From an uncultured Clostridia bacterium (GTDB lineage: Bacteria; Bacillota; Clostridia; Christensenellales; Aristaeellaceae), in the NCBI GenBank assembly GCA_947165425.1, contig CAMVAJ010000003.1:24824-88823 (forward strand): a DNA stretch of 64,000 bases, read 5' to 3'. A model generated the notes under the pieces. The model was not told the origin of the DNA. It made no database searches and saw only the letters and a list, made by a program, of their open reading frames with translations. Position numbers and translations under genes: made by a program. Positions 4,617 through 55,170 of this stretch are shown in pieces; positions within the stretch are counted from its first letter, which is position 1; each line of letters opens with the position of its first letter.

Positions 4617-4836
4617 GTTCAGTCGCACGGGGCATGGCGACTGAAACCTCTCTGTCGCTGCGGCGACATCTCCCCTTTACTGTGAAAATACGAAGTATTT
4701 CATTTATCGTGTTAAATCGTACTTTGTACTATTTATGGTTATTTCAGGGGAGACAGGGGTTAAAAGTTACCTGAAGCCTCCCCTGAAAGGGGAGGGGGAC
4801 CGCTTGCGGCGGAGAGGTTTCGCTGCACGGCTGAAC
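4617..4836 (+). repeat. Mosaic palindromic repeat, subfamily 1, full unit with nested AT-rich cassette (copy a)
   Basis: GAAACCTCTC (4643-4652) and GAGAGGTTTC (4812-4821) are inverted termini. It contains TGTCGCTGCGGCGACA, an ATCTCCCC/GGGGAGAC stem around a 71-nt AT-rich loop (4676-4746), and CCTCCCCTGAAAGGGGAGGGGGACCGC. Confidence 0.9.
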
Positions 4837-4849
4837 AGATACGAATGGA

Positions 4850-6175
4850 TCAGGTTTCATTCATCCTGGTTCCGTCGGCGGTCACCACGGCCTCCCAGAG
4901 CTTGGGCCGCGCCGGCGGCTCCTCGGAGAAGGTGATGGCGGCGCGGATGGCCCGCTCGGCGGCGTCCGCCTCGGCCTCGCTCCGGGCGCAGAGGGTGCAC
5001 AGCTCGGTGTCCCGCTCCACCCGGTCGCCGATGCGCACCGGGAGGATAAAGCCGACGGAGTAGTCCAGCGCGTCCGTCTTGCGCAGCCGGCCCGCGCCCA
5101 TGGCCTGGGCGGCCAGGCCAAGGGCCGTGGTGTCCATGGCGTCCACATAGCCGCCGCGGCCGACGGTCACGCGGCGCCTCACCGCGGGCTGGGGCAGGCG
5201 GGAGAGGTCGTCGCAGACCCGGGGGTCGCCGCCCTGGGCCCCGATCATCTGCCGGAGCTTCTCCAGGCCCGCGCCGCTGTCGAGGGCGCGGCGCAGCTGG
5301 ATCTCGGCCTCGGCGGGGTCCTTCGCGGCCCCTGCCAGGGTGAGCATATGGCTCCCCAGCAGGAGGGAGACGGCCAGCAGATCGCCCTTCGTCCGGCCGG
5401 AGAGCACGTCGATGGCGTCCTTCACCTCCAGGGCGTTGCCCACGTGGGTGCCCAGGGGCTGGGCCATGCCGGTGATGACGGCGGTGACAGGCTTCTCCGC
5501 CAGGGCGCCGATGGCCACCATGGCCCGGGCCAGCTCCAGGGAGCCCTCCAGCGTGTGCATGATGGCCCCGGAGCCGGTTTTGACGTCCAGGACGATGGCG
5601 TCCGCGCCGCTGGCGAGCTTCTTGGACATGATGGAGGAGGCGATCAGCGGCAGGCTGTCCACCGTGGCGGTCACGTCCCGCAGGGCGTAGAGGGCCTTGT
5701 CCGCCGGCGCGAGGGAGCCGGTCTGGCCGATGACCGCCAGGCCGATGCGGTTCACCTGGTCCACGAAGGCCTTCTCCGACAGCGAGACGCTCAGGCCGGG
5801 GATGGACTCCAGCTTGTCCAGGGTGCCGCCGGTGTGCCCCAGGCCCCGGCCGCTCATCTTCGCCACCGGCACGCCGCAGGCGGCCACCAGCGGGGCGAGG
5901 ATCAGCGTCGTGGTGTCCCCGACGCCGCCGGTGGAGTGCTTGTCCACCTTGATCCCCGGGATGGCGGATAGATCCGCCACGTCGCCGGACTTCAGCATGG
6001 CCAGGGTCAGGGCGGTGGTCTCCTCCGCCGTCATGCCCCGCAGACGGATGGCCATCAGCAGCGCCGCGAGCTGGTAGTCCGGGACGCTCCCGGTCGCCGC
6101 GCCGTCGACAAAATACTTGATCTCGTCCGGGGAGAGCGCCCCGCCGAGCTTTTTCTTTGTGATGATTTCAACCAT
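4850..6175 (-). CDS. pdp: Pyrimidine-nucleoside (thymidine) phosphorylase
   Basis: Motifs DKHSTGGVGD and GRGLGHTGGTLDKLE. Start is at MVEIITKKK (ATG 6175) rather than the longer track ORF. Confidence 0.9.
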   Translation of the reverse strand: MVEIITKKKLGGALSPDEIKYFVDGAATGSVPDYQLAALLMAIRLRGMTAEETTALTLAMLKSGDVADLSAIPGIKVDKHSTGGVGDTTTLILAPLVAACGVPVAKMSGRGLGHTGGTLDKLESIPGLSVSLSEKAFVDQVNRIGLAVIGQTGSLAPADKALYALRDVTATVDSLPLIASSIMSKKLASGADAIVLDVKTGSGAIMHTLEGSLELARAMVAIGALAEKPVTAVITGMAQPLGTHVGNALEVKDAIDVLSGRTKGDLLAVSLLLGSHMLTLAGAAKDPAEAEIQLRRALDSGAGLEKLRQMIGAQGGDPRVCDDLSRLPQPAVRRRVTVGRGGYVDAMDTTALGLAAQAMGAGRLRKTDALDYSVGFILPVRIGDRVERDTELCTLCARSEAEADAAERAIRAAITFSEEPPARPKLWEAVVTADGTRMNET

Positions 6176-6285
6176 ATTCACAGGCCGATTCCTCCCGCAA
6201 AAAAGTGATGCGCGATCAAAGGCTTCCGCTGGGGACATTGTAGCACAAAAGGCGCCGGGGCACAATTCCTATCGCGACGGGTGTG

Positions 6286-6344
6286 GACCTCATCCACCGC
6301 TGCGGCGGTCCCCCTTCCCCTAAAGGGGAAGGTCGGGTTTTTTT
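6286..6344 (+). repeat. Mosaic repeat, subfamily 3 half-unit (copy d) ending in hairpin plus T7
   Basis: CCTCATCCACCGCTGCGGCGGTCCCCC, then the CCTTCCCC-TAAA-GGGGAAGG hairpin (6313-6332), then a T-run (6338-6344). The same module occurs at 33243-33305 and 33382-33430. Confidence 0.85.
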
Positions 6345-6456
6345 ATTTCTTGCGAAAACTGCGCATGCCGTCCTTGCGGAGAAGAGAACGCATGTTCTAT
6401 ATTCGCTGCGCCGGGAGGGAGCGCCTCCCGAGAGACGAGAGAAGGATGGTGAACCA

Positions 6457-6873
6457 ATGGCGGAACCCATGGAGGAGGAGCGGCCGGCGGAGGAGCTGGC
6501 GGCGGCGCTGGAGGAGACGGCGCGGCTGCGGGAGGCGCTGACGGCGGCCCGGGCGGAGACGGAGGCTCTGCGGGCGCGGACGGCCCGGGAGGCGGGCCTG
6601 CGGACGGCGCTGCTGGCGCGCGGGGTGCGGCCGGAGGCGCTGGAGCTGCTGGCCGCCTCGGCGGGGGCGGCGGAGGACGCGGAGATGGCGGCGGAGGAAC
6701 TGCGGGGCCGGTACGCCTTCTGCTTCCGGCAGGAGGGCGGGCTGATCCCGACCGCGCCCCTCTCGCCCCCGGAGGCGGAGACGGGCGGCCTCAGCCGGGA
6801 GGCCCTCGCGGAGATGAGCGCGGCGGAGATCAACCGCCGCTGGGAGGAGGTGCGCGGCGCGCTGGGCGCGTAG
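6457..6873 (+). CDS. Phage capsid scaffolding protein (coiled-coil, DUF4355-like)
   Basis: Acidic, Ala/Glu/Arg-rich coiled-coil protein directly upstream of the capsid gene. The upstream part of track ORF 6283-6873 is repeat-derived, so ATG 6457 was chosen. Confidence 0.55.
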   Translation: MAEPMEEERPAEELAAALEETARLREALTAARAETEALRARTAREAGLRTALLARGVRPEALELLAASAGAAEDAEMAAEELRGRYAFCFRQEGGLIPTAPLSPPEAETGGLSREALAEMSAAEINRRWEEVRGALGA

Positions 6874-6916
6874 TCCGGCCAGAAAGAAATCATGCGCGGC
6901 AGCTCAATCGCATGTC

Positions 6917-7063
6917 ACCGTGCGACTGGAAACCTCTCTGTCGCTGCGGCGACATCTCCCCTTTACTGTGAAAATACGAAGTATTTTCATTTATCGTGGT
7001 AAATAGTACTTCGTACTATTTATGGATATTTCAGGGGAGACAGGGTTAAAATGAACCGAGGCC
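6917..7063 (+). repeat. Mosaic repeat, subfamily 1, left half with nested AT-rich cassette (copy b)
   Basis: Near-identical to 4641-4775, including the 72-nt AT-rich loop (6962-7033) with hairpins at 6970-6988 and 7001-7021. It lacks the right-hand CCTCCCC module. Confidence 0.9.
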
Positions 7064-7124: not shown

Positions 7125-7928
7125 ATGGCCATCACAAGCTTTATCCCCAAGGTCTGGAGCGCGAGACTCCAGGAGAATCTGCACAAGGCGCTGGTCTTCG
7201 GCGCGCTGTGCAACCGCAACTACGAGGGCGACATCGCCGTCTGCGGCGACACCGTCCACATCAACTCCCTGCGCGACGTCACCGTGCGCCCCTACACGCC
7301 CGGCGAGGATCTGGCCGACCCGGAGCAGCTCAGCGGCGACGACCTGACCCTGACCATCGACCACGCGGTCTACTGCAACTTCTATCTCAGCGACGTGGAC
7401 GCGGCCCAGGCGAGGGCGGACGTGATGGACGCCGCCATGCGCGGGGCGGCCCGCCGCCTGGCGGAGGACACCGAGAGCTACCTGCTGGGCGTGATCCGCG
7501 CCGGCGCGGGGATCACGCTGACGCTGAACCTCTCCCGCTCCGACGTCTTCACCTGCCTGATCGACCTGAAGACCGCGATGGACGAGCGCAATGTCCCCCG
7601 CCAGGGGCGCAGGCTCGTGGTGCCGCCCACGCTGGAGGGGGAACTGCTCAAGGACAGCCGCTTCGTCACCGCCGGCGGCGCGCTGGCGGAGAGCGCCCTC
7701 GCCGAGGGCGCGGTGGCGCGGGCCTGCGGCTTCGACATCTACATCAGCAACGACCTCGACGGGGAGATGGTGGCGATGACCGAGGACGGCGTGACTTTCG
7801 CCCAGCAGATCGCGAAGATGGAGGCCTACCGCCGGGAGAAGGGCTTCGACGACGGCGTGAAGGCCCTCTCCCTGTGCGGCGCGAAGGTGGTCATCCCCGA
7901 CTGCGTGGCGCTGGTGACGGTGTCCTGA
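7125..7928 (+). CDS. Phage major capsid protein (P22-coat-like family)
   Basis: The N-terminus MAITSFIPKVWSARLQENLHKALVFGALCNRNYEGDI..GDTVHI matches the conserved start of P22-coat-like capsid proteins. It follows the scaffold gene. Confidence 0.65.
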   Translation: MAITSFIPKVWSARLQENLHKALVFGALCNRNYEGDIAVCGDTVHINSLRDVTVRPYTPGEDLADPEQLSGDDLTLTIDHAVYCNFYLSDVDAAQARADVMDAAMRGAARRLAEDTESYLLGVIRAGAGITLTLNLSRSDVFTCLIDLKTAMDERNVPRQGRRLVVPPTLEGELLKDSRFVTAGGALAESALAEGAVARACGFDIYISNDLDGEMVAMTEDGVTFAQQIAKMEAYRREKGFDDGVKALSLCGAKVVIPDCVALVTVS

Positions 7929-7946
7929 GGAGGCTGAGAGACGATC

Positions 7947-8384
7947 GTGACGGCAGCGGATGTGATGCGCGAGGTGCGCAACTGCTTCCCCGCCTCCTCG
8001 ATGCGGGGGACGTGGACCATCGCCGGGGGCCATCTGACCCCCGGCGACCTCCTCCTGCCCGGGGACTGGATCGCGCTGGAGGGCTCCCTCTATAACGACG
8101 GGGCGCACCAGCTGGACGAGCACGGCGACCTCCCCGGCGCGCGGGACGAGACCTTCACCGGCGTGATCTGGCTCCTGCGCCCGCCCGGGGCCTTCCTGGA
8201 GCTGTGCGCGGAGATCGCGGCCTGGGAGGCCCGCTGGGATACGGGCGCGCTGGCCCAGGAGCGGCTGGAGGGCTACGGCTGGCGCGGGGCCACCGACGCC
8301 AACGGCCTGCCCGTGGACTGGCGCGATGTGTTCCGGGCGCGGCTGATCCCCTACCGCCGGATGTTCCCGGAGGTGAACCCGTGA
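7947..8384 (+). CDS. Hypothetical phage protein
   Basis: 145-aa ORF in the phage gene string with GTGA overlap to the next ORF. No recognisable motif. Confidence 0.4.
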   Translation: MTAADVMREVRNCFPASSMRGTWTIAGGHLTPGDLLLPGDWIALEGSLYNDGAHQLDEHGDLPGARDETFTGVIWLLRPPGAFLELCAEIAAWEARWDTGALAQERLEGYGWRGATDANGLPVDWRDVFRARLIPYRRMFPEVNP

Positions 8385-12113: not shown

Positions 12114-12428
12114 TCATTCCAGCTTTCCCGGATAGTCCTCCAGGTCGTGGAAAACGCCCAGAATAAAGACCGTCTGCTCGTCCACGCGAAAAACGACCCG
12201 GTAGCGCATCCGCTGAAACAGCGCTTCCCTGTATCCGCGGATGAAGAGAAAACGGTCTTTGCTCTCGGCAAACTGGTAGGGATTGTCCTCCAGCCGGCTG
12301 TAGACGCGCTCAAGCTCGTCGAGAAAGTGGGAAGCGGCGTCCGGGTTTTTCAGCTGGTTGAGCAGATAGGAGACCGAGCGGTCAATCAGCTCGTCCGCCC
12401 GATCCGTGACGATCAGCTTATAAGCCAT
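12114..12428 (-). CDS. Type II toxin, RelE/ParE family
   Basis: 104-aa protein with the typical RelE/ParE layout (YRVVFRVDEQTVFILGVFH). It overlaps the upstream antitoxin gene by 11 nt. Confidence 0.8.
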   Translation of the reverse strand: MAYKLIVTDRADELIDRSVSYLLNQLKNPDAASHFLDELERVYSRLEDNPYQFAESKDRFLFIRGYREALFQRMRYRVVFRVDEQTVFILGVFHDLEDYPGKLE

Positions 12429-12678
12429 ACTTCGACCTCACAGCCTGGAGCGCCTTTTTCGCGTCCTTTGTTTTTCCCTGCGCGATCTGCTCCTCCGAGG
12501 TCTCCAGGTCGGCGTACATCTCCCATTTCCGGCGGGCCGCCTCGTAATAATCCATGCTCATCAGCACCATGTCCCCATAGCCGTTTTTGGTGATATAGAT
12601 GGGCTCGTTCAGGCTGTGACACAGATCGGAGATACCGGCCGTATTCTTCAGATCCTTGATGGGAATGATCTGTGGCAT
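12418..12678 (-). CDS. Type II antitoxin (Phd/YefM- or RelB-like)
   Basis: 86 aa with N-terminal IPIKDLKNTAGISD...EPIYITKNG, typical of Phd/YefM-type antitoxins. It is in an operon with the RelE/ParE toxin. Confidence 0.75.
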   Translation of the reverse strand: MPQIIPIKDLKNTAGISDLCHSLNEPIYITKNGYGDMVLMSMDYYEAARRKWEMYADLETSEEQIAQGKTKDAKKALQAVRSKYGL

Positions 12679-13912: not shown

Positions 13913-18132
<4,220 letters not shown>

Positions 18133-18183
18133 TGTCCTGAGTGCAAACAGGACGTTCAAGTCAGAATGCTTCATGCCAGCAGA

Positions 18184-18382
18184 AGACCAGCCCCTCTGTC
18201 GCTGCGGCGCCCTGGCCTATCGGCATTCTGCGCTGAAAACATGCCGCTGGCATGTTTTCCAGGCGCTCCGAATCCCCAGCAAGCTGGGGAGATAGGGATT
18301 AAGTGCAGTAACCAAAGGACCTCCCCAGCTTGCTGGGGAGGGGGACTGCCGCCCTCCGTGGGGCGGCGGTGGAAGGGCTGGT
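18184..18382 (+). repeat. Mosaic repeat, subfamily 2, full unit with module B (copy f)
   Basis: ACCAGCCC (18186-18193) and GGGCTGGT (18375-18382) are inverted termini. It contains TGTCGCTGCGGCG, an 11-bp hairpin GAAAACATGCC/GGCATGTTTTC (18235-18259), CCTCCCCAGC/GCTGGGGAGG (18320-18341), and the CTGCCGCCC/GGGCGGCGG hairpin (18346-18369). Confidence 0.9.
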
Positions 18383-18431
18383 TATTCGATATAGCCATCG
18401 CATCTGAATGGTATAAAAGGAGCCTGAAGGC

Positions 18432-19598
18432 ATGTCTGCTTGGATTGAGGTGGATCTGGACGCGGTGACGGCGAACTACCGCACGGCCTGCGCCCTTGCC
18501 CGGGACGGGGCGGAGATCACCTGCGTGGTGAAGGCCAACGCCTACGGCCACGGGGCGGTGCCGGTGGCCCTGGCCCTGCAGCGGGCCGGGTGCCGGAGCT
18601 TCGCCGTCTCCTGCGGGCGGGAGGCCCTGGAGCTGCGCCGGGGCGGGATCGGCGGGGATATCCTCGTGATGACCCCCGCGGGGCCGGAGCTGCCGGAGTT
18701 GCTCGCCGGGGACGTGACCCTCACCGCCGCGGCGGAGGCGGATCTGCGGGCCGCGGAGGCCGTCGCCGCCCGGGCCGGGCGGACCGCCCGCGTGCAGCTG
18801 AAGCTGGACAGCGGCTTTCACCGGCTCGGCTTCCCCTGCGGGCCGGAGACCGCGGCGGCGCTCGCGGCGGCGATCCCGGCCTTCGGGCATGTCCGGGTCA
18901 CCGGGGCCTACACCCATCTGGCCCTCGCCCGGCCCGAGCTGGACGAGCGGCAGGTGGGCCGCTTCCGGGAGACCGTGGACGCGCTGGAGGCGGCGGGTGT
19001 GCCGCTGCCGGACCGCCATGTCTGCGACTCCATCGGCCTGGCACGCTATCCCCAGTGGCACATGAGCCGCTGCCGGGTGGGGGCGTTCCTCTTCGGCTCC
19101 TGCCCCCGGGACGTGCGGGCGCGGGGCATCCCCTGCCGGGAGAGCCTGCGCTTCCTCGCGCCGGTCACCCAGGTGACGGAGGTGGCCGCCGGGGAGACCG
19201 TGGGCTATGACGAGGCGCTCACCGACCGGCCCATGCGCGTGGCCACCGTCCAGGCGGGCTACGGGGACGGCTATCCCCGCTGCCTCTCCGGGGGGCGCGG
19301 ACAGGTCCTGATCCGCGGCCGGCGCTGCCCGGTGGTGGGGCTGATCTGCATGGATCAGATGATGGTGGACGTGACGGAGCTGCCGGCGTGCCGGCCGGGG
19401 GACACGGCGGTGCTGCTGGGCGGGGAGATCTCCTATGACGAGATGGCCGGCTGGGCGCATACCAACCGGAACGAGTGCCTGACGATCCTCTCCCGCCGTC
19501 CCGTGCGGAAGTATTTCAAGGGCGGCAGGCGGGTCGCCGCGTGGGATATGCTCGCGCAGGGCGGTTTCCTGCAAACAGATTACGCTTTGTCAGAATAG
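18432..19598 (+). CDS. alr: Alanine racemase
   Basis: PLP-lysine motif VVKANAYGHG, 388 aa. Confidence 0.9.
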   Translation: MSAWIEVDLDAVTANYRTACALARDGAEITCVVKANAYGHGAVPVALALQRAGCRSFAVSCGREALELRRGGIGGDILVMTPAGPELPELLAGDVTLTAAAEADLRAAEAVAARAGRTARVQLKLDSGFHRLGFPCGPETAAALAAAIPAFGHVRVTGAYTHLALARPELDERQVGRFRETVDALEAAGVPLPDRHVCDSIGLARYPQWHMSRCRVGAFLFGSCPRDVRARGIPCRESLRFLAPVTQVTEVAAGETVGYDEALTDRPMRVATVQAGYGDGYPRCLSGGRGQVLIRGRRCPVVGLICMDQMMVDVTELPACRPGDTAVLLGGEISYDEMAGWAHTNRNECLTILSRRPVRKYFKGGRRVAAWDMLAQGGFLQTDYALSE

Positions 19599-19649: not shown

Positions 19650-20831
19650 ATGGATCTGACCCGGCTGAGGGAGACGATCGAACCCCTGCTGCCCCATGCG
19701 GTGGCGCTGCGGCGGGAATTCCACGCCCACCCGGAGCGCTCCGGAGAGGAGCGCGAGACCCGGGCGCGCGTCGTCCGGGAGCTGACAGCCCTGGGCATCG
19801 AGGTTCATCTCTTTGAGGACTGCCAGAGCGTGATGGGCGTTATGCGCAGCGGGGAGGGCCCCTGCGTGGCGATCCGGGCCGACATGGACGCCCTGCCCAT
19901 CGCCGAAGAGACCGGGCTGCCCTTCGCCTCGGAGAACCCGGGCGTGATGCACGCCTGCGGCCACGACGTCCACCTGGCGCTGGCGCTGGGCTCGGCGGCC
20001 TGGTTCAGCGCGCACCGGGACAGCTGGCACGGGACGGTCAAGTGGCTCTTCGAGTCCGAGGAGGAGACCGTGGGCGGCGGCCAGCGCATGGTGGCGCAGG
20101 GCTGCATGCGGAACCCGCCCGTGGACGCGGTGCTCGGCCAGCATATGAACCCGAACTACCCCACCGGCACCTTCTACGCCCGGCCCGGCTTCACCAGCGG
20201 CTCCAGCGACGAGCTGTGCCTGACGGTCACCGGCTCCGCCTGCCACGGCGCCTACCCCCAGCGGGGCGTGGACGCCATCGTGGTGACGGCCCAGGTGGTC
20301 AGCGCCCTGCAGACGCTGATCAGCCGCAGCATCTCCCCCTTCGAGCCGGCGGTGCTGACCTTCGGCGTGATCCGAGGCGGCACGGCGGAGAACATCGTCT
20401 GCGGCGAGGTGACGCTACGCGGCACGCTGCGCACCCTGACGCCGGAGACGGAGACCTTCCTGCTGGAGCGGATCCGGCGGACGGCGGAGGGCGTCGCGGC
20501 GGCGATGGGCGCGCGGGCGGCGCTCGAGGTCTTCCCCAGCTACCGGCCGGTCTACAACGAGCCCGCGCTCTATGAGACCGTGGCGGCCCAGGCGGAGCGC
20601 ATCTTGGGCCGGGAGCGGATGGTGCTCCAGCCGGCCCCGAGCCTCGGGGTGGAGAGCTTCTCCTACTTCCTGAAGGAGACCCCTGGCGTCTACTACGATC
20701 TGGGCTGCGGCGTGGGCACGGCCCTGCACACCCCCACCTTCCACGTGGACGAGGCGGTGATCCCCCTGGGGATCGAGATGCAGGTCGCGTGCGTGCTGCA
20801 GCTGTTGGAACGGAGCGCTGATACGCCATGA
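19650..20831 (+). CDS. M20D-family amidohydrolase (N-acyl-amino-acid / hippurate hydrolase type)
   Basis: MHACGHDVH metal-binding motif and the overall M20 layout. Confidence 0.8.
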   Translation: MDLTRLRETIEPLLPHAVALRREFHAHPERSGEERETRARVVRELTALGIEVHLFEDCQSVMGVMRSGEGPCVAIRADMDALPIAEETGLPFASENPGVMHACGHDVHLALALGSAAWFSAHRDSWHGTVKWLFESEEETVGGGQRMVAQGCMRNPPVDAVLGQHMNPNYPTGTFYARPGFTSGSSDELCLTVTGSACHGAYPQRGVDAIVVTAQVVSALQTLISRSISPFEPAVLTFGVIRGGTAENIVCGEVTLRGTLRTLTPETETFLLERIRRTAEGVAAAMGARAALEVFPSYRPVYNEPALYETVAAQAERILGRERMVLQPAPSLGVESFSYFLKETPGVYYDLGCGVGTALHTPTFHVDEAVIPLGIEMQVACVLQLLERSADTP

Positions 20832-21871
20832 AACAGAACCGGCAGTTCCAGTTTGTCCTGTATCAGACAGCGTCCGAGAACGTATCCGTCAACGCATTGG
20901 TCAAAGACGAGACCTTATGGCTGACACAAAAGGCCATGGCGGAGCTGTTCGGCGTGCAGACACCCGCCATCAGCAAGCATTTGAAACATATTTTCCAAGA
21001 AGGGGAATTGCAGGAAAAAGTGGTTGTTTCCAAAATGGAAATACCCACTCCCCACGGAGCGCTTTCCGACAGAACGCAAGTGCACGAAACCACCCTGTAC
21101 AATCTCGATGCCATCATTTCGGTCGGCTATCGTGTCAACTCTCGCAGAGCCACTCAGTTTCGCATCTGGGCAACCGGAGTGCTGCGGGAATACATGCAAA
21201 AGGGATTTGTGTTAGATGATGAGCGCCTGAAGCAGGGACAGTCTATCTTTAATTCAGACTATTTCCGGGAACTGCTGGAACGGGTACGCTCAATCAGATC
21301 CAGCGAGCGCCGGATATGGCAGCAGGTGACGGATATTTTTGCCGAGTGCAGCATAGATTATGACAAGGATTCGGACATCACGCGGTCTTTCTACGCAATG
21401 ATCCAGAATAAGTTTCATTATGCCATCACACATGCGACGGCGGCAGAAATCATTTATGACGGGGCAGACCATAACGCGGCCCATATGGGCCTGACCACAT
21501 GGAAAAACGCGCCGGAGGGCCGCATTCTCCAATCGGATGTTGTCATAACGAAGAACTATCTCACGGCGCAGCAGATCCATCAGCTGGAGCGGGCGGTATC
21601 AGCTTACTTCGACTATATTGAGGGCTTGATTGAAAGAGAAAACACATTTACAATGGCGGAGTTTGCGGAGAGCGTAAACGCATTTCTGAGCTTTAACCGC
21701 TATGATATACTCCCGGACAGGGGCAGGGTAAGCCATGCTCAGGCGGTGGAAAAGGCGAAGGCTGAATACCTCATTTTTAATCCGACGCAGCGCATCGTTT
21801 CGGATTTTGACCTTGAAGTTCAGCGGCTCCTGGACGGAAACAGTGAGAAGGAGTCATCCAATACCAGATAA
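20828..21871 (+). CDS. RhuM-family virulence/DNA-binding protein
   Basis: VSVNALVKDETLWLTQKAMAELFGV....ISKHLKHIF.EGEL and VGYRVNS.RATQFRIWAT motifs typical of RhuM. It is visibly AT-richer than its flanks, with ATGA overlap to the upstream gene. Confidence 0.8.
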   Translation: MKQNRQFQFVLYQTASENVSVNALVKDETLWLTQKAMAELFGVQTPAISKHLKHIFQEGELQEKVVVSKMEIPTPHGALSDRTQVHETTLYNLDAIISVGYRVNSRRATQFRIWATGVLREYMQKGFVLDDERLKQGQSIFNSDYFRELLERVRSIRSSERRIWQQVTDIFAECSIDYDKDSDITRSFYAMIQNKFHYAITHATAAEIIYDGADHNAAHMGLTTWKNAPEGRILQSDVVITKNYLTAQQIHQLERAVSAYFDYIEGLIERENTFTMAEFAESVNAFLSFNRYDILPDRGRVSHAQAVEKAKAEYLIFNPTQRIVSDFDLEVQRLLDGNSEKESSNTR

Positions 21872-25040: not shown

Positions 25041-25237
25041 AGCCTCCCCTGAAAGGGGAGGGGGACCGCTTGCGGTGGAGAGGTTTCTTTACCCGGGCAG
25101 ACGGTGAAACGTGAAAAAACTTGTACTGCCGCCAACGGGAACCTCTCTGTCGCTGCGGCGACATCTCCCCTTTCAGGGGAGACTGGGCTAAGAGTTACCG
25201 AAAGCCGCAGCAGGCCGCTTGCGGTGGCGAGGTTCCA
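25041..25237 (+). repeat. Mosaic repeat, subfamily 1, right module + spacer + left module + degenerate right module (copy c)
   Basis: CCTCCCC-TGAAA-GGGGAGG (25043-25061) followed by GGGGACCGCTTGCGGTGGAGAGGTTTC. Then AACCTCTCTGTCGCTGCGGCGACATCTCCCC-TTTCA-GGGGAGAC (uninterrupted loop), linker GGGCTAAGAGTTACCGAAAGCC, and GCCGCTTGCGGTGGCGAGGTTCC. Confidence 0.9.
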
Positions 25238-34433: not shown

Positions 34434-34467
34434 CCGGAGCTCATTCAGCAGGAAAGGAGAACAAGCC

Positions 34468-34917
34468 ATGGACAAGACGCAGCGGCAGAAGACCATCCTC
34501 AGCCTGATCGCGGAGCGGGGGATCGGCACCCAGGAGGATCTCGTGGACGCGCTCCGGGCGATGGACATCCAGGTGACCCAGGCGACGGTCTCCCGGGATA
34601 TCCGCGAGCTGCACCTGGTCAAGCGCACCGGGGAGTACGGCACGCGCTACGTCAAGCCCGAGGCGGAGGAGCACTCGGTCACAGGCCGCTTCCACCGGAT
34701 GCTGCGCGAGTCGGTGCTCTCGGTGGGCCGCTCGGAGAACCTGCTGGTGGTGCGGACGCTCTCCGGCTCCGCGAACGTGGCCGGCGAGGCCCTCGACTCC
34801 CTGGAGTGGCCGGAGATTTTAGGCACCATCGCCGGAGACAACACGGTCCTGGTGATCGCCCGCTCGGTGCAGGAGGCCCCGGACCTGGCCCAGCGGCTGC
34901 AGAAGCTGATCAAGTGA
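34468..34917 (+). CDS. argR: Arginine repressor
   Basis: 149 aa with a winged-helix N-terminus (RQKTILSLI....I.TQE.LV..L...G..VTQATVSRDI.EL) and a C-terminal GTIAGDNT motif. Confidence 0.9.
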   Translation: MDKTQRQKTILSLIAERGIGTQEDLVDALRAMDIQVTQATVSRDIRELHLVKRTGEYGTRYVKPEAEEHSVTGRFHRMLRESVLSVGRSENLLVVRTLSGSANVAGEALDSLEWPEILGTIAGDNTVLVIARSVQEAPDLAQRLQKLIK

Positions 34918-41679: not shown

Positions 41680-41973
41680 TCAATTTACCCCTCCACCCTC
41701 TCCAGCAGCTCCCGCAGGATGCGGGCGGCTCTGTCGTGGGGTTGATCTCGCATTCTCTTCTTCGACAAGTCTAATCAGTTCGCTTGCGGTGATACCGAGG
41801 GTATCCGCGATTCGCCAAAGCGTGTCGAGCCTAACGGTTTTACGGCCGTTTTCGAGCATCACAAGATGGCTGCGTGCAACACCGGACAGGGCGGAGACTT
41901 CCTCCTGGGTGAGCATTTTCTGAATGCGGAGTCGCGCGATGACGATCCCAAATGCTTTGCTGCTATAGGGCAT
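41680..41973 (-). CDS. XRE-family HTH regulator with a C-terminal tail read out of the direct repeat
   Basis: AGGAGG RBS 8 nt upstream of ATG 41973. HTH LTQEEVSALSGVARSHLVMLENG. The last 15 codons lie in the 45-bp repeat in a frame different from the helicase frame. Confidence 0.75.
   Translation of the reverse strand: MPYSSKAFGIVIARLRIQKMLTQEEVSALSGVARSHLVMLENGRKTVRLDTLWRIADTLGITASELIRLVEEENARSTPRQSRPHPAGAAGEGGGVN
41685..41729. repeat. 45-bp direct repeat, left copy (displaced copy of the helicase gene 3-prime end)
   Basis: TTACCCCTCCACCCTCTCCAGCAGCTCCCGCAGGATGCGGGCGGC is identical base for base to 44595-44639. Confidence 0.95.
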
Positions 41974-44129: not shown

Positions 44130-44192
44130 TAGAGATGCAATATTTGAAAAGCGACTAATAGTATCATTTCAGAATAAGATGCATTATCTGGA

Positions 44193-44333
44193 AACCGGCC
44201 CTTCCACCACCGCCCCGCGAGGGCGGCGGTCCCCCTCCCCAGCAAGCTGGGGAGGTTTTTAGATACTGCACTTTAGCTCAATCTCCCCATCTCCGATGGG
44301 GAGATGTCGCCGCAGCGACAGAGGGGCCGGTCT
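44193..44333 (-). repeat. Mosaic repeat, subfamily 2, lacking module B (copy g, inverted orientation)
   Basis: ACCGGCCC...GGGCCGGT termini. It contains CCGCCCCGCGAGGGCGGCGG, CCTCCCC-AGCAAGC-TGGGGAGG followed by TTTTT (44234-44260), TCTCCCCATCTCCGATGGGGAGA, and TGTCGCCGCAGCGACA. Confidence 0.9.
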
Positions 44334-44350
44334 TCTGCCAAAAAGATAAG

Positions 44351-44383
44351 GCCACCGCATACTCAAGATGCACGGTGGCTTTT
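44351..44383. terminator. Terminator-like hairpin resembling the one at 41609-41641
   Basis: GCCACCGCAT...ATGCACGGTGGC followed by TTTT. The stem sequence GCCACYGC/GCRGTGGC is shared with 41609-41637. Confidence 0.6.
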
Positions 44384-44415
44384 GCATCGTGAGATGCTTC
44401 TACTGCAAAATGCAA

Positions 44416-44595
44416 TTACCATTCTTCGCTCCCCACGGGCTCTCCCCAGTCATACTCCCCGGACACGAGCAGTTTACCGCCATATGCTTCCGCGCGCTCC
44501 TGCAACGATCTGTGTTGGAAGGGCGCCGGATGAACGTCCTGCGAGGAAGATGTCTCGCGGGCGTTTTCCTTGCGGCTGTTTTCGTTTTTCAACAT
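44416..44595 (-). CDS. Orphan MazE/PemI-type antitoxin C-terminal tail (59 aa), no AbrB-like DNA-binding domain and no toxin partner
   Basis: It ends in YDWGEPVGSEEW; E. coli MazE ends in DWGEPKDKEVW. Its ATG shares one base with the helicase TAA stop (TAATG). Confidence 0.45.
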   Translation of the reverse strand: MLKNENSRKENARETSSSQDVHPAPFQHRSLQERAEAYGGKLLVSGEYDWGEPVGSEEW

Positions 44596-44639
44596 TACCC
44601 CTCCACCCTCTCCAGCAGCTCCCGCAGGATGCGGGCGGC
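44595..44639. repeat. 45-bp direct repeat, right copy (functional 3-prime end of the helicase gene)
   Basis: Identical to 41685-41729. It encodes the last 14 codons plus the stop (..AARILRELLERVEG*). Confidence 0.95.
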
Positions 44640-46874
44640 GGTGGCCTTGCCGTCGGGGCCGATCTCGCCCACGGGGCCGGCGCAGGAGGGGCAGCCGTGC
44701 TCGCAGCCGCAGTGGGTCACGATGTCGAGGCACTTCTCCAGAAGCATCCCCTGCATGCCGAAGGCCTTCTGGGAGAGGCCCACGCCGCCGGGGCAGTTGT
44801 CGTAGAGGATGACGGTGGGCTGGTCGGTGATGGGGCTCTTCACCTGGTAGATCACGGCCAGATCCTGGGGCGAGCACATCAGGTACAGCGGAGCGACGAT
44901 GCGCAGCAGGTTCGTCACGCCGAGCATGCCGTTTTTCAGCTGGTCGGAGGCGAGGGACGCGCACAGCTCCTCCGGCAGCGTCCACCACATGGCCTGGGTG
45001 TGCATCTCCAGTTCCGGCAGGCGCACCTTGCCGAAGCCCAGAGTCTCGTGGGTGTCGAAGCGGATCTTCTTGAACATGGTCACCAGGCTCAGCACCTTCA
45101 CCTCGCCGAAGGCGCTGGTGACGCCGCGGTGCGCCTGCTCCTCCTCGATCTCCAGCAGGGAGAGGGAGACGTTGAGGTCCGCGTCGGTATAGTAGCCCAC
45201 GTCCACCTGCCGGATGAAGGCCTTGCAGGCGTCGAAGTCCAGCTTCTCCACCTGGTACTGCTGGCCCTCGTGCATGTAGATGGCGTTCTCGTGCAGGAGC
45301 ATGGGGACGGTGTAGCGGTCCATCTCGCCGATCACCTTGTGCCGCGCCGGGTCGGTGATGTCGATGATGACGAAGTTCTCCCCCGCGGGGGAGCGCAGGC
45401 TGATCTCGCTGGCGGGGAAGTCCTCCGCCATCCAGTAATACTTTCCCTCCCGGTGGCGGAGAATGTGCCCCTCCTCCAGGAAGTTCAGGAAGGTCTCCGG
45501 CGCGGGCGCGTTCCCGAAGGCGTCCCCGTCCTCGAAGGGCAGCTCGTAGGCCGCGCATTTGAAGTGGCTCATGAGGACGTAGAGGTTGTTCGGGTTGAGC
45601 AGGGCGTGCTCGGGGCTGGCGGAGAGGAAATAGTCCGGGTGGGTGACGATGAACTGGTCGATGGCGGCGGAGGAGGCCACGAAGAAGACGATGGAGGAGG
45701 CCTTGCGGCGGCCCGCCCGGCCCGCCTGCTGCCAGGCGCTGGCGATGGTGCCGGGGTAGCCGCAGAGCACGCAGGCGTCCAGCGCGCCGATGTCGATGCC
45801 CAGCTCCAGGGCGTTGGTGGAGACCACCGCGTCGATCTCCCCGGCCCGCAGGCCGCGCTCGATCTCCCGGCGCTGGGTCGGCAGATACCCGCCCCGGTAG
45901 CCCCGGACCCTTCCGGCGTTGCCCAGGGGATCCCGGGCCATGTCCTTGAGATACCGGGTCAGCACCTCCACGGTCACCCTCGCCCGGGCGAAGGTGATGG
46001 CCTGGATGCCGTTTTTCAGCAGCAGGCCGGCGATCTCCCGGACCTCGGGCACGACGCCGCGGCGGATGCCCAGCTGCCGGTTGACCACCGGGGGATTGTA
46101 GAACACAAAGTGCCGCTCGCCCATGGGCGCGCCGTTGTCGTCCACGAGGGTCACGGGGCGGCCGGTCAGCGTCTCGGCCAGCTCCTTCGGGTTGGCGATG
46201 GTGGCGGAGCAGAGGATGAACTGCGGATGGCTGCCGTAGAAGGCGCACAGCCGCATCAGCCGCCGCAGCACGTTAGCCAGGTTGGAGCCGAACATGCCCC
46301 GGTAGGTGTGAATCTCGTCGATGACAATGTAGCGCAGGTTCTCGAAGAGCTTGACCCACTTGGTGTGGTGGGGGAGGATGCCCGAGTGGAGCATGTCGGG
46401 GTTAGTGACCACGATGTGCCCCGCCTGCCGGATGGCGCGGCGGGCCGCCGCCGGGGTGTCCCCGTCGTAGGTGTAGGTCTTGATGTCCACGCCCATGGCC
46501 TCGATCAGCTCGTACAGCTCGCTGACCTGGTCGGCGGAGAGGGCCTTGGTGGGGAAGAGGTACAGCGCCCGGGCGTCCTCGTCCTGCAGGATCGCGCTGA
46601 GGACGGGGAGGTTGTAGCACATGGTCTTGCCGGAGGCCGTGGGCGTGACGACCACGATATCGCGCCCGGCCATCACCTCGCGCAGGGCGTGGGCCTGGTG
46701 GGTGTAGAGGCGGTAGATGCCCCGCTTCTGCAGGGGCGGGAGCAGCCGGGGGTCCACCTCCGGCGGGAAATCGGCGTACCGCGCCTCCCGGGCGGGCATG
46801 ACCTCCCAGCGGGTCACGTTCTCCATAAAGGCCGGGTCGTTGCGCAGCACCTGCGCCAGCTGATCGACGTTCAC
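44595..46874 (-). CDS. DEAD/DEAH-box helicase with C-terminal four-Cys DUF1998 domain (MrfA/YprA-like)
   Basis: AAGGAGG RBS 8 nt upstream of GTG 46874. Walker A TPTASGKT, VIDEIH (DExH), and C-terminal CGCEHGCPSC. The longer track ORF (to 49652) is read-through on the antisense strand of other genes. Confidence 0.85.
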   Translation of the reverse strand: MNVDQLAQVLRNDPAFMENVTRWEVMPAREARYADFPPEVDPRLLPPLQKRGIYRLYTHQAHALREVMAGRDIVVVTPTASGKTMCYNLPVLSAILQDEDARALYLFPTKALSADQVSELYELIEAMGVDIKTYTYDGDTPAAARRAIRQAGHIVVTNPDMLHSGILPHHTKWVKLFENLRYIVIDEIHTYRGMFGSNLANVLRRLMRLCAFYGSHPQFILCSATIANPKELAETLTGRPVTLVDDNGAPMGERHFVFYNPPVVNRQLGIRRGVVPEVREIAGLLLKNGIQAITFARARVTVEVLTRYLKDMARDPLGNAGRVRGYRGGYLPTQRREIERGLRAGEIDAVVSTNALELGIDIGALDACVLCGYPGTIASAWQQAGRAGRRKASSIVFFVASSAAIDQFIVTHPDYFLSASPEHALLNPNNLYVLMSHFKCAAYELPFEDGDAFGNAPAPETFLNFLEEGHILRHREGKYYWMAEDFPASEISLRSPAGENFVIIDITDPARHKVIGEMDRYTVPMLLHENAIYMHEGQQYQVEKLDFDACKAFIRQVDVGYYTDADLNVSLSLLEIEEEQAHRGVTSAFGEVKVLSLVTMFKKIRFDTHETLGFGKVRLPELEMHTQAMWWTLPEELCASLASDQLKNGMLGVTNLLRIVAPLYLMCSPQDLAVIYQVKSPITDQPTVILYDNCPGGVGLSQKAFGMQGMLLEKCLDIVTHCGCEHGCPSCAGPVGEIGPDGKATAARILRELLERVEG

Positions 46875-47111
46875 GCCGGAGACCTCCTTATGATGCGCAA
46901 TCGAAAAAGGGAAAATCAGTTCGCATGGATTGTACCACGGGCGGCGCGAAATGACAAGGCGAACAGCGCTGTTTCCACGCCCTCCGCGGCCGTCCGCCGC
47001 CCAGAAAAGCCGATTGCGCTTTTCACGCAAAGAGGGTATAATAGGAATGCGGCACTTTTCGCGTGCCCGCAGTTCCGACATAGGATATGGGATCATAAAG
47101 GAGGTCACCCG

Positions 47112-48287
47112 ATGTACGCTGTTTGGAAGCGCCTGCTGTCCCTGCTGCTGGCTCTGGCTGTTCTGGCTCCGCTCACCCTCGGCGCCGCCCTGGCGGAGGA
47201 AGAGGAGGAGCTGATGCTGGAGGAGGACGTGATGCTGGAGGAGGACGAGGAGGTCGCCTTCATCATCGGAGACGGCAAGGAGGTCACGGAGGAGGATCTG
47301 GACGCGCTGGAGATCGACGACTCCATCGATCCGAACGACCTGGAGATCAACACGGCGCTGTCGGACAAGGTGATCAACATCCTGCTGATCGGCGTGGACT
47401 CCCGGGAGACGAGCCTGCAGTCCTCCTCGAGCCTGCTGCACAACGACGTCACCATGATCCTCTCCGTCAACACGGAGGACGGCTCGATCAAGCTGACCAG
47501 CGTGCTGCGCGATTTGTATACCAGCATCCCGGGCTACAAGGACAAGGGCCGGCTGAACGAGGCCTTCGCCCGGGGCGCGGGCAAGGCGGGCAACATCAGC
47601 GGCGGCGCGTCGCTGACCATGCGGACGATCAACCACCTCTTCGGGATGAACATCTCCCAGTATGTGGTCATCAACTTCTACGGCGTGGCCTCCATCATCG
47701 AGCAGCTCGGCGGCATCGATCTGCGGCTGACCCGCGGCGAGGCCTACGCGATCAACTATTACCTCGAGAAAAACGGTAGCCGCATGAAGTATGACACCAA
47801 GGGCAACGACAACCGCGAGAAGCTGACCCTCCCCAAAGGCAACAAGGAGGAGGAGATGGAGGAGCGGCATCTGGACGGCATGCAGGCCCTGATGTACGCC
47901 CGCCTGCGCACCGGCATGAAGGAGCGCACCGGCGACTTCTGGCGGACCAACCGCCAGCGCTATCTGCTGGAGACCCTGATGAAGAAGGTGCTCGCGGGCA
48001 TCGACCTGAACAAGCTCGGGAACCTGGTGCAGATCGCCTACCCCTATGTGCAGACCAACATCCCCGCCGGAACGCTCCTGCAGATGGCCATCGGCGTCAT
48101 CAGCCAGGGCGACCTGATGGGCAAGCTGGAACGGGGCGAGCCGATGATCGAGCAGCTCTCCATCCCCATGGAGAACCACTACAGCTACGACCAGGTGAAC
48201 GGCGCCAGCGTCATCACCATGACGACCCAGCAGTGGAGCGACTCGAAGGATCGGATCCACTACTTCATCTACGGGGAGAGCAACTGA
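47112..48287 (+). CDS. LytR-CpsA-Psr (LCP) family cell-envelope glycopolymer transferase
   Basis: Signal/anchor LLSLLLALAVLAPL, an acidic linker, then INILLIGVDSRE...D.MILSVN...G...LTSVLRD.Y, typical of LCP proteins. Confidence 0.8.
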   Translation: MYAVWKRLLSLLLALAVLAPLTLGAALAEEEEELMLEEDVMLEEDEEVAFIIGDGKEVTEEDLDALEIDDSIDPNDLEINTALSDKVINILLIGVDSRETSLQSSSSLLHNDVTMILSVNTEDGSIKLTSVLRDLYTSIPGYKDKGRLNEAFARGAGKAGNISGGASLTMRTINHLFGMNISQYVVINFYGVASIIEQLGGIDLRLTRGEAYAINYYLEKNGSRMKYDTKGNDNREKLTLPKGNKEEEMEERHLDGMQALMYARLRTGMKERTGDFWRTNRQRYLLETLMKKVLAGIDLNKLGNLVQIAYPYVQTNIPAGTLLQMAIGVISQGDLMGKLERGEPMIEQLSIPMENHYSYDQVNGASVITMTTQQWSDSKDRIHYFIYGESN

Positions 48288-49670: not shown

Positions 49671-49704
49671 TGCTCCTCTTCATCAGAGGGTGAGTGCTGG
49701 CAAA

Positions 49705-49878
49705 AGACCGGCCCCTCTGTCGCTGCGGCGACCTGGCCTGTCGGCATTCTGCGCTGAAAGCATGCCACTGGCATGTTTTCCGGGCGCTCCGAATCCCCAT
49801 CGGAGATGGGGAGATTGGGCTAAAGCGCAGGATCTAAAAACCTCCCCAGCTTGCTGGGGCGGTGGAAGGACCGGTCTC
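49705..49878 (+). repeat. Mosaic repeat, subfamily 2, with module B, lacking the second GC hairpin (copy h)
   Basis: GACCGGCCCCTCTGTCGCTGCGGCGAC, then module B with GCATGCCACTGGCATG, then TCCCCATCGGAGATGGGGAGA, GGGCTAAAG, and CCTCCCCAGCTTGCTGGGGCGGTGGAAGGACCGGTC. Confidence 0.9.
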
Positions 49879-49928
49879 TGAATTGAGCGTTTCAATCAGC
49901 GTATCGCGACAAAGCAGGAGGAAACCCC

Positions 49929-53367: not shown

Positions 53368-53388
53368 GGAGAGAGAGGTGGAGAGACC

Positions 53389-54153: not shown

Positions 54154-54174
54154 GCTTCGGGGAGAGTCCGGGTG

Positions 54175-54585
54175 TCAGCGCGTGAGGTGAATGCAGTCCT
54201 CCTCGTAATGCTCGAAGTTTCCATCATGGGAGATCAGCAGCAGACCCTCCGTTTTGGCCTGCGCGATCAGCATCCGGTCGAAGGGATCCAGGTTGCTGAG
54301 CGTGTGGCCGTCCCGGATCCGCAGATGGCGTACAGACAGGATATGGGAGGGCAGAATGTTCAGGCAGGAATATCCCGCGAGCTCGCAGAAAGCCTGAATC
54401 TGCGCCTCATGGTAGGGGCATTTCTCCGGTGACTTCTGGTTTTTGAGCGCAATCTCCCACAGGGAGACCGCGCTGTAGCAGACATGGTTTTCAGGGGACA
54501 GAATCATTTCTGTCTCCTGTTTGCTTAGACGCGGGCTTTCGGTCAGCGCCCAGATCAGGACATGGGTGTCCAGGAGGATGTTCAT
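54175..54585 (-). CDS. vapC: Type II toxin, VapC family (PIN domain)
   Basis: ILLDTHVLIW start with the conserved Asp, and D.FDRMLIAQA typical of PIN toxins. It shares 1 nt with the antitoxin gene (ATGA). Confidence 0.85.
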   Translation of the reverse strand: MNILLDTHVLIWALTESPRLSKQETEMILSPENHVCYSAVSLWEIALKNQKSPEKCPYHEAQIQAFCELAGYSCLNILPSHILSVRHLRIRDGHTLSNLDPFDRMLIAQAKTEGLLLISHDGNFEHYEEDCIHLTR

Positions 54586-54842
54586 CAGATCTCCTCCTCC
54601 ATCAAGAATTCTTTTTCCATGTCGATGCTGTTGAACGCGTCCAGGGACTCGAGCGCGGGGAGCTGTCCCTTGGCGATGCCGATGCGCCTGGAGGTGTCCG
54701 CTTCGTAGGGGATCAGCTTTGCGGCGGGCTTCCCGTTGCGGGTGATCACGATAAAGGGCTCTTTGCGTTCCGAGAGAGAAGCCACATACTTGGAAAGATT
54801 GGTCTTCGCCTCAAAAATGCTGACGGTGGTCATGGCCAGCAC
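54585..54842 (-). CDS. Type II antitoxin, Phd/YefM family
   Basis: 85 aa with VSIFEAKTNLSKYV......EPFIVITRNGKP, typical of Phd/YefM. It lies upstream of vapC. Confidence 0.8.
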   Translation of the reverse strand: MLAMTTVSIFEAKTNLSKYVASLSERKEPFIVITRNGKPAAKLIPYEADTSRRIGIAKGQLPALESLDAFNSIDMEKEFLMEEEI

Positions 54843-54849
54843 TCCTTTC

Positions 54850-54880
54850 TTGGCTAACTTAGCTAACCAATTATATTATA
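54850..54880 (-). promoter_or_regulatory. Candidate TA promoter and operator
   Basis: On the minus strand, TATAAT (54875-54880) is followed by the imperfect palindrome TTGGTTAGCTAAGTTAGCCAA (54850-70), just upstream of the RBS. Confidence 0.4.
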
Positions 54881-54973
54881 GCGTGTTGGAACAGGGACGT
54901 CAATAGACCGCGATGGATCCACCGGAGGACGCGGAGGCTGATACTTATCTCAGAATAAATGGATCATCTGCCA

Positions 54974-55170
54974 GACCAACCCTTCCACTGCCGCCCCGCA
55001 GAGGGCGGCGGTCCCCCTCCCCAGCAAGCTGGGGAGGTTTTTGGATACCGCGCTTTAACCCTTTCTCCTCAGCTTACTGGGGATTCGGAGCGCCCGGAAA
55101 ACATGCCGGCGGCATGTTTTCAGCTCAGAATGCCGATAGGCCAGGTCGCCGCAGCGACAGAGGGGCTGGC
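54974..55170 (-). repeat. Mosaic repeat, subfamily 2, full unit with module B (copy i, inverted orientation)
   Basis: Mirror image of copy f: CTGCCGCCCCGCAGAGGGCGGCGG, CCTCCCC-AGCAAGC-TGGGGAGG followed by TTTTT (55016-55042), GGAAAACATGCCGGCGGCATGTTTTC, GTCGCCGCAGCGACAGAGGGGCTGG. Confidence 0.9.

Follow-up and report, generated by a model that had tools for sequence, protein, structure and literature searches.

A modular family of small, probably mobile hairpin elements in the intergenic DNA of uncultured high-GC gut Clostridia

Small non-coding repeats of bacteria that derive from insertion sequences (IS), the miniature inverted-repeat transposable elements (MITEs), include Correia/NEMIS of Neisseria, RUP of Streptococcus pneumoniae and bcr1 of Bacillus cereus. 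BOX of Streptococcus pneumoniae and the SNRs of Deinococcus radiodurans are modular or mosaic intergenic repeats of 60-220 nt, which are also present in many copies. Repetitive extragenic palindromes (REP) are recognized as imperfect palindromes of 20-40 nt tagged by GTAG (or CGTC) (PMC3733652), and genes resembling REP-associated tyrosine transposases (RAYTs), called 'TIRYT', are flanked by longer, even double-palindromic terminal inverted repeat (TIR) sequences, which make up families of moderate abundance with single, dimeric and grouped members, some of them with the motif GGGGWSAS (Di Nocera et al. 2013, PMC3733652). This paper makes no mention of Clostridia or Firmicutes; the SNRs of Deinococcus radiodurans are mentioned in PMC1978522. 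Here we describe a family of GC-rich nested-hairpin repeats in a stretch of 64,000 nt from an uncultured Clostridia bacterium (contig CAMVAJ010000003.1, positions 24,824 to 88,823), which as a whole is called the window below. We put the probability that these repeats belong to a family of mobile elements which are small, non-coding and non-autonomous at about 80%.

The original prediction, made from the letters of the window alone, had described nine loci built from the hairpin modules A, A2, H1 and H2 and a linker, and had regarded them as an unnamed family of bacterial interspersed mosaic element (BIME)/REP- or MITE-like type. The modules are indeed present at all nine loci, and a sensitive blastn search with these loci against the whole window returned the same nine regions only. 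In a repeat search 18183-18316 and 55040-55173, which lie 36 kb apart, showed 90% identity over 134 nt, 49699-49799 and 55078-55178 92% over 101 nt, 6285-6341 and 33375-33431 96% over 57 nt, and 4643-4700 was identical to 6929-6986 (58 nt, 100%). The 16-nt core of module A (CTCTGTCGCTGCGGCG) has seven exact matches in the window, where 0.23 are expected and none of 100 shuffles reached seven, and folding of three elements as single-stranded DNA gave z = -7.4, -4.1 and -5.4 with none of 200 shuffles being equally stable. The elements are non-coding and 59-253 nt in size; in addition to the nine window loci there are more than 100 copies in related metagenome-assembled genomes (MAGs). Pairwise divergence among the copies amounts to 3-15%, and they also differ in module content. 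Comparison of the modules bore out the predicted subfamilies with shared cores, the quoted inverted termini (GAAACCTCTC/GAGAGGTTTC and ACCAGCCC/GGGCTGGT) are present, and all tests made support the proposed type of repeat. The loci had been placed correctly, but for some copies the true ends lie further out, as for the first copy (4611-4842) and for the family-1 copies, which extend outward by palindromic ~20-45 nt. The statement that nearly every long intergenic gap is filled was exaggerated, since only about nine of roughly 17 gaps of at least 150 nt hold an element.

Master copies were replicated and the products inserted into intergenic DNA. For family 2 this can be read from the ends: the outer inverted ends (GTAWCYRTTCAG...) match at 11 of 15 positions in the window (4611-4625 against 4828-4842), and perfect 8-bp target-site duplications stand exactly at the inverted termini in four of the five complete copies. 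The copy at 4611-4842 is flanked by GAATGGAT (4603-4610 and 4843-4850), and the related MAG CAMKAE01, in which three copies are exactly 166 nt long (ends GTATCTATTCAGTC... / ...GACTGAATAGTTAC), provides the duplications ACCTATCT (L007), GCCAAATG (L096) and CATGAGAA (L086). A sixth family-2 copy (L011) has a 6/8 flank match. As the chance of one exact 8-bp flank match is ~1.5e-5, four exact 8-mers at the exact element ends cannot be chance. Between window and CAMKAE01 the family-2 copies are 92% identical over 190 nt, whereas the only other stretch that could be aligned, inside a recO-containing open reading frame (ORF), is ~75% identical. The terminal inverted repeats and the perfect duplications are indicative of a DDE enzyme that acts in trans; from this footprint, family 2 would be moved by cut- or copy-and-paste. 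IS families known for 8-bp duplications are ISL3, IS66, IS256 and IS1595. Families 1 and 3 and the single units might be older copies of the same process, or units resembling REP or REP doublets forming hairpins (REPINs) that are moved by another enzyme.

For family 1 an insertion is seen between ligA and alr. Two related species share the gene order pcrA-ligA-alr-M20-S66 and have a ligA-alr spacer of 26-32 nt, compared to 299 nt in the window; the element including its outer arms (18160-18412) accounts for nearly all of this excess and is therefore an insertion. A 97%-identical strain carries the element at the same ligA-alr/alr-side junction, with its contig ending inside the element, and an 80% relative has unrelated sequence at the alr-side junction. 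Synteny with L022, used as an empty-site test for the copy at 54974, ends at ~59.1 kb and yielded no empty site. A master copy has left its signature in one termite-gut MAG, where 63 copies share a single T.C mismatch in the A2 stem. The original prediction had proposed a search for copies beyond the window, for insertion polymorphism and for target-site duplications, and all three exist: the first in other assemblies, the second against related species at the ligA-alr spacer and the third, as perfect 8-bp repeats, in one subfamily. As a separate observation, L101 (1-183, with the 80% alr orthologue) has a different short repeat (CCCGCCCGTCC ... GGGCGGGATATATCCCGCCCGTCC) upstream of alr in place of the window's element, which hints at other repeat families in the clade.

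All elements are copies of one building block of ~45-50 nt, a two-hairpin singlet that exists in the two variants A-type and H-type. It is composed of a tail (CCTCT/CCTCC), a GC hairpin with the loop TGCG (GTCGC..GCGAC or ACCGC..GCGGT), a joint of 3-4 nt and a CCCC/GGGG hairpin with variable loop. The A-type singlet reads CCTCT-GTCGC-TGCG-GCGAC-ATC-TCCCC...GGGGA and the H-type singlet, when reverse-complemented, CCTCC-ACCGC-TGCG-GCGGT-CCCC-CTCCCC...GGGGAG, with A and H2 as well as A2 and H1 being inverted variants of one and the same singlet. Singlets are found alone (6286-6344, 25041-25090), as a tail-to-tail pair (33243-33431), as inverted doublets over the linker (A-A2-linker-H1-H2, as in 18184-18382) and with optional modules in a loop or between the hairpins; tandem extra A-only or H2-only units with ~32-nt spacing occur in ruminal_MAG_389. 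A full element thus consists of an A-type singlet, the linker and an H-type singlet closed by a further stem, and because of this inverted-doublet build with optional modules each full element is a nested imperfect palindrome. The sequence of the closing stem varies by subfamily with its complementarity being kept (GAAACCTCTC/GAGAGGTTTC, GACCGGCCCC/GGGGCCGGTC, TTGCCCC/GGGGCAA), and family 1 has the terminal inverted repeats AGACCGGCCCCTC / GGAAGGGCCGGTCT plus outer arms.

Two optional modules were recognized. One of 60 nt with its own hairpin lies between A and A2 in the copies at 18184, 49705 and 54974. The other, an AT-rich double hairpin of ~75 nt, occupies the CCCC/GGGG hairpin loop of the copies at 4660 and 6946 and, in other genomes, the loop of an H-type hairpin. 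It may have been inserted separately, with loops as its target, or may go back to a long loop of the ancestor. The AT-rich module was located at 4672-4753 and 6958-7040 in the window, in L041, in L045 (3516-3597) and in L096 (6401-6472), and is made of two mutually complementary hairpins (AAATACGAAGTATTT and AAATAGTACTTCGTACTATTT); once it stands outside the CCCC/GGGG hairpin, and a weak promoter-like match covers it at 7023-7052. The positions and settings of all elements in the window are compiled in Table 1.

Table 1. Repeat elements of the window with their structure and genomic setting (gene coordinates and strands in brackets).
Element	Position	Strand	Structure	Setting
Full-length family-2 element	4611-4842	(+)	232 nt; outer inverted end ATAACCGTTCAGTCG, A, A2 with ~75-nt AT-rich module in loop, linker, H1, H2, right outer end CGGCTGAACAGATAC	between pyrimidine-nucleoside phosphorylase stop (4850, -) and M32 carboxypeptidase start (4576, -)
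H-type singlet	6286-6344	(-)	H2 hairpin CCGCTGCGGCGG and CTTCCCC/GGGGAAG hairpin; on + strand followed by T7, therefore terminator-like	divergent gap, phosphorylase start (6265, -) / coiled-coil ORF with real start near 6454 (+)
Truncated family-2 copy	6917-7063	(+)	partial left outer arm, A, A2 with AT-rich loop module, linker; without H1, H2 and right end	upstream of capsid-like gene (7125-7928)
Full-length family-1 element	18160-18412	(+)	core 18184-18382: A, 60-nt middle module with hairpin AAAACATGCC/GGCATGTTTT, A2, linker, H1, H2; outer inverted arms TCAGAATGC (18163-18171) and GCATCTGA (18402-18409)	fills ligA-alr spacer
H-type singlet	25041-25090	(+)	H1, H2, closing GGAGAGGTTTC	12 nt past scpB stop (ORF end 25029)
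Compact family-2 variant	25100-25237	(+)	left extension common to L111, A, A2 (TTTC loop), linker, degenerate H1, H2, closing stem	upstream of HIT gene (25298)
H-type singlet with linker	33243-33320	(-)	ACCTCATCCACC...GGTTTTTGATTACTGCGC; on + strand hairpin and T5	118 nt downstream of rlmH stop (33163)
H-type singlet, inverted	33375-33431	(+)	tail-to-tail doublet with 33243-33320; ends ACCTCATCCACC / GGTGGATGAGGT	
Family-1 copy without middle module	44161-44340	(-)	outer arm begins GTATCATTTCAG at 44161; on + strand H1 and T5 (44234-44260)	~100 nt downstream of DUF4230 stop (44129); gap convergent with helicase gene
Family-1 copy with middle module	49698-49880	(+)	H2 and the 3' half of H1 lost by a 28-nt deletion	divergent gap, helicase start (49652, -) / Fe-ADH start (49929, +)
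Full-length family-1 copy	54966-55178	(-)	H1 and T5 on + strand at 55016-55042	divergent gap, Phd/PIN operon (start 54842, -) / flavin reductase gene (55278, +)

In order to follow the family beyond the window we scanned a reference-genome collection with one genome per species, which gave at least 99 stretches. Among the matches listed, ~58 contigs belong to the Oscillospiraceae MAG Gx481_bin194, 13 to CAMKAE01 and 12 to ruminal_MAG_389, and fewer to Hs463_bin65, Nm470_bin129, RGIG7975, RGIG2676 and a Hadza human-gut MAG; in the related assemblies the copies are often found at contig ends. A core of ~27 nt (CCTCTGTCGCTGCGGCGACATCTCCCC) is nearly invariant in at least eight Clostridia MAGs from termite gut, rumen and human gut and in three phage contigs. 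Within the related loci 171 of 179 core hits fall outside the called genes; tandem, convergent and divergent gaps are occupied at similar rates (27%, 40% and 23% of gaps, respectively). About 15 of the listed matches, located in coding sequence of other phyla, were set aside as CDGSH-type Cys-rich motifs (...LCRCGAS.NKPFCDG...) unrelated to the repeats. A metagenome scan with a family-1-specific 29-mer added three more contigs whose flanks are unlike the window; each carries a family-1 copy, two of them also a second element, namely a family-2 half (L111) and a family-3 singlet (L112), and none an autonomous element. The L112 copy is 98.7% identical to the singlet plus linker at 33243-33320 and stands in an unrelated context.

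The three phage contigs, all from IMG/VR (L102 = IMGVR_UViG_3300028805_002215, L103 and L104), carry singlets, and as read by eye A+A2 singlets lie on either side of a small-terminase-like gene, directly upstream of a large-terminase-like gene. These could be insertions or phage signals, and the phages are a possible vehicle for horizontal spread between hosts. In the termite-gut MAG Gx481_bin194 (L002-L098) module A was observed at the head of ~480-nt mosaics of many hairpin modules (...GGTCCAGGCGAAGCCTGGTCAGGATTCGAAAGGGCGGATAGCCC...GTCCCGCCGCAGCG), for example L019 3329-3830 and L005 1437-1920, which are present in more than 40 copies, often break contigs and have no Rfam match. Palindromic versions of 148-189 nt in the same MAG have flanks that are complementary to each other and different in each copy.

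The repeats could not be assigned to a described family, as the original prediction had supposed. Rfam gave no hit in the window at gathering score (only sub-threshold miRNA-hairpin noise at 18100-18450) and only tRNAs in nine related loci; the annotated phage and plasmid collections contained no match to the repeats, and a full-text literature search for the core sequence found no paper. The search for the mobilising enzyme was likewise negative. In agreement with the original prediction, a Pfam search of ~50 window ORFs showed no transposase domain. Clustering the ORFs of 99 repeat-bearing loci (620 kb) revealed only repeat-derived pseudo-ORFs and ordinary families as multi-copy, and the genes bracketed by repeats are ordinary as well (sortase, Ig-like protein). 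In the window and ~0.6 Mb of related loci the outer-end motif is present only in short elements and no cognate autonomous IS with the same ends was found. A crude regular-expression search for IS200 motifs was empty, and phmmer with E. coli RayT against ORFs of at least 80 aa from the window and ~0.7 Mb of loci gave no hit (best E = 1.4).

Read in the direction from H to A, H1 is followed by a T-run that complements the A-rich linker, which results in six hairpin plus T-run sites called terminator-like: 6313, 33281, 44234 and 55016 (+), 49859 (-) and, weakly, 18341 (-). The first four are those at which a T-run after H1 had been predicted. Only two of the six, 33281 after rlmH and 44234 after DUF4230, lie behind a co-oriented gene; the remaining four face divergent promoters or the wrong strand, in line with the earlier remark that some terminators sit where nothing needs terminating. 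As far as the sequence allows us to judge, H1 together with the A-rich linker could form a hairpin and U-run that ends transcription behind rlmH and DUF4230, and the hairpins could also insulate or stabilise transcripts. Since such ready-made signals stand beside housekeeping genes, they may rewire transcription locally. We regard terminator or insulator effects as probable by-products which might occasionally be co-opted.

Several observations weigh against non-autonomous mobile elements as the explanation. There is no convincing target-site duplication in families 1 and 3: the positions of the suggestive 7-8-nt direct repeats in family-1 flanks, of which TTTATTCT at the 55-kb copy is an example, are not tied to any defined ends, and 7-of-8 flank matches are at chance level, with about one per copy expected by our own estimate in 60-nt flanks. 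The ruminal_MAG_389 copies also show no target-site duplication. The palindromic flanks of some copies vary from one copy to the next, and others carry the tandem extra units, both of which fit REP/BIME-type behaviour better than classical MITEs. A near-invariant 27-nt core from termite to human hosts is not easily explained by neutral decay, and no transposase with matching ends was found in the tested window genes or in ~0.6-0.7 Mb of related loci. In a tentative alternative, which we find less than likely, the core singlets are REP/REPIN-like units kept by a single-copy HUH (Y1) transposase of RAYT/TIRYT type that is encoded elsewhere in the genome and acts on single-stranded hairpins, with family 2 being the secondary capture of a doublet inside a conventional MITE. 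It would account for the conserved tail and the GC-rich hairpin with 4-nt loop, for singlets, inverted doublets and clusters, for two opposed unit variants joined by linkers like the Y and Z REPs of BIMEs, and for the missing duplications in ruminal_MAG_389 and family 1. The stem variants of hairpin A among 116 units, nine doubly compensated versus three uncompensated, also speak for it, and fit either a structural need for mobility or selection at the RNA level. A precedent has been described (PMC3733652), and the 3' arm of the family-2 A2 (GGGGAGAC) fits GGGGWSAS, an 8-nt match that may be chance and serves as a lead only. However, the units have no GTAG or CGTC tag, the RayT search of the window and ~0.7 Mb of loci and the crude IS200 search were empty, and 8-bp duplications as in family 2 are not made by Y1 transposition; moreover, RAYTs have been described mainly from Proteobacteria, and a text search for REPIN, RAYT and Firmicutes found no paper. 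In a further reading, which we consider rather unlikely, the two-hairpin singlet would be a long-lived REP-like replicator of this whole gut Clostridia clade, transmitted vertically and by phages, that either depends on an enzyme without relationship to RAYTs or is the binding site of a conserved factor of host or phage, with the MITE bearing target-site duplications as one offshoot; if true, Firmicutes would have their own equivalent of the REPIN-RAYT partnership, in which the catalytic partner is new.

It is also quite doubtful that the elements are kept as structured RNA or DNA signals, that is as terminators, transcript insulators or stabilisers or as sites for host or phage proteins, with their multiplicity resulting from selection. 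The hairpin plus T-run sites behind rlmH and DUF4230 in one orientation, the compensated stems, the slight excess in convergent gaps (40% vs 23-27%) and the nearly invariant 27-nt core in at least eight MAGs and in phage contigs, where it flanks the terminase-like genes as read by eye, would agree with such a role, but only two of the six terminator-like sites are placed accordingly, the orientation relative to downstream genes is inconsistent, orthologous spacers in relatives are without any such signal and no Rfam family matches. Truncated or deleted copies (6917-7063, and 49698-49880 without H2) persist as well, and the stem mismatch fixed in 63 copies argues for copying and not for selection on each copy. 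That the repeats are artefacts of assembly or binning, chimeric joins or collapsed repeats, is hardly conceivable even though the related assemblies are fragmented with contigs often ending in repeats: the copies differ by 3-15% and in module content, they sit between intact, syntenic genes, an independent assembly has the same alr-side junction, and target-site duplications surround copies in other assemblies. We favour a family of small non-autonomous mobile elements as the explanation.

The window itself has a GC content of 59-75% apart from a low-GC island (42%) at 42-44 kb and encodes housekeeping functions such as M32 carboxypeptidase, pyrimidine-nucleoside phosphorylase, PcrA-LigA-Alr-M20-S66-M50-ScpA-ScpB, RlmH, NAD kinase, RecN, adenylosuccinate synthetase and HisF; tRNA genes were not found in it. 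Within the reference-genome collection a Christensenellales rumen MAG comes closest to it at the DNA level (83% over 2.7 kb). An initial guess from the GC content of 67% and the style of the repeats, namely Deinococcus SNRs, was dropped because alanine racemase and its neighbours are clostridial, with proteins matching best to 'MAG: Clostridia bacterium', and because of this closest DNA match.

Other features were observed along the window. A perfect 45-nt direct repeat (TTACCCCTCCACCCTCTCCAGCAGCTCCCGCAGGATGCGGGCGGC; 41685-41729 and 44595-44639), which is the 3' end of the gene for a 1685-aa MrfA-like helicase, encloses the 2.9-kb segment 41730-44594 with 43% GC against 62-65% in its surroundings. 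Besides the repeat element 44161-44340, the segment contains two DUF4230 genes, an HTH_3 ORF and further ORFs of unknown kind. It resembles an island that entered at the 3' end of the helicase gene and produced an att-like duplication; no integrase was seen. Between the M20 and S66 peptidase genes lies a RhuM-family gene (20828-21871; PF13310, E = 6e-100) with a third-position GC of 0.62 compared to ~0.93 in its neighbours; as the 97% strain (L100) and two related species (L105 and L107) have no such gene at the same junction, its insertion is recent. The (-) strand encodes two toxin-antitoxin pairs of type II, ParE/Phd at 12114-12678 and PIN/Phd at 54175-54842, the latter adjoining the element 54966-55178. 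The locus 7125-8384 consists of a capsid-like gene (PF25209 Phage_capsid_4 / P22 coat, E = 2.5e-10) and an unknown ORF, with no obvious prophage around and the truncated repeat just upstream; it is possibly encapsulin-like or a remnant. The solute-binding-protein gene is separated from its neighbour by a 58-nt AT-containing palindrome (30564-30621; GAAAAACGGACGCAAAATCAGTCGCAAAATTTTGCG...), which does not belong to the repeat family and has the appearance of a bidirectional terminator or an operator.

The family is of practical relevance for metagenomics. Metagenome assemblies of this lineage are broken by the repeats, in which many contigs end, and false ORFs are created: the peptides that had been quoted as bogus are translations of repeats, and mechanically called ORFs begin or end inside them (e.g. 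6283-6873, 32629-33291, 33371-34507 and 44304-48287). Recognition and masking of the repeats would improve MAG quality and annotation for this little-known group of Clostridia from rumen, termite gut and human gut, and insertion polymorphisms could serve as strain markers. With a classical MITE footprint, REP/BIME-like modularity and a core conserved across hosts and phages, the family is a useful case for questions of repeat persistence and of the mobilising enzyme.

In comparison with bacterial MITEs as they are generally described, the window family shares the size of 150-250 nt, the non-coding, intergenic and multi-copy nature, terminal inverted repeats, long hairpins, the ability to bring terminators or promoters beside genes, a presumed mobilisation in trans and, in family 2 only, duplications of a fixed length of 8 bp. 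It differs in that no parent IS was found, families 1 and 3 are without demonstrable duplication, and the interior consists of reusable hairpin modules that also occur as free singlets, tandem units and ~480-nt mosaics; Correia/NEMIS, RUP and bcr1 were compared by description only. The same is true for BOX and SNRs, which are likewise modular, intergenic, stably folded and without coding capacity but differ in phylum or GC content. With the REP/BIME/REPIN sequences and RAYTs of Enterobacteria and Pseudomonas (PMC2817692, PMC3116915, PMC3733652) the family has in common hairpin units that are short, GC-rich and preceded or followed by a conserved tail, two variants alternating in orientation, specific linkers and mosaics, an arrangement as singlets, inverted doublets and clusters, the extragenic location, a long persistence within a clade and stems kept by compensatory change. 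Its units of ~45-50 nt, however, have two hairpins each instead of one and the tails CCTCT / CCTCC instead of GTAG or CGTC, no RAYT homologue was found in the sequence searched, one subfamily has 8-bp duplications, and the host belongs to an uncultured high-GC Clostridia lineage and not to the Proteobacteria. The likeness to TIR repeats (PMC3733652) lies in the longer, partly double-palindromic inverted repeats, in the families of single, dimeric and grouped copies and in the possible GGGGWSAS match of family 2; no TIRYT gene was seen beside any copy. Family 2 works like a MITE and the core looks like REP/BIME/REPIN mosaics. Both are part of a previously unnamed family that has spread among a group of uncultured gut Clostridia of high GC content and has reached some of their phages, a well-known type of selfish DNA in hosts that are new for it.

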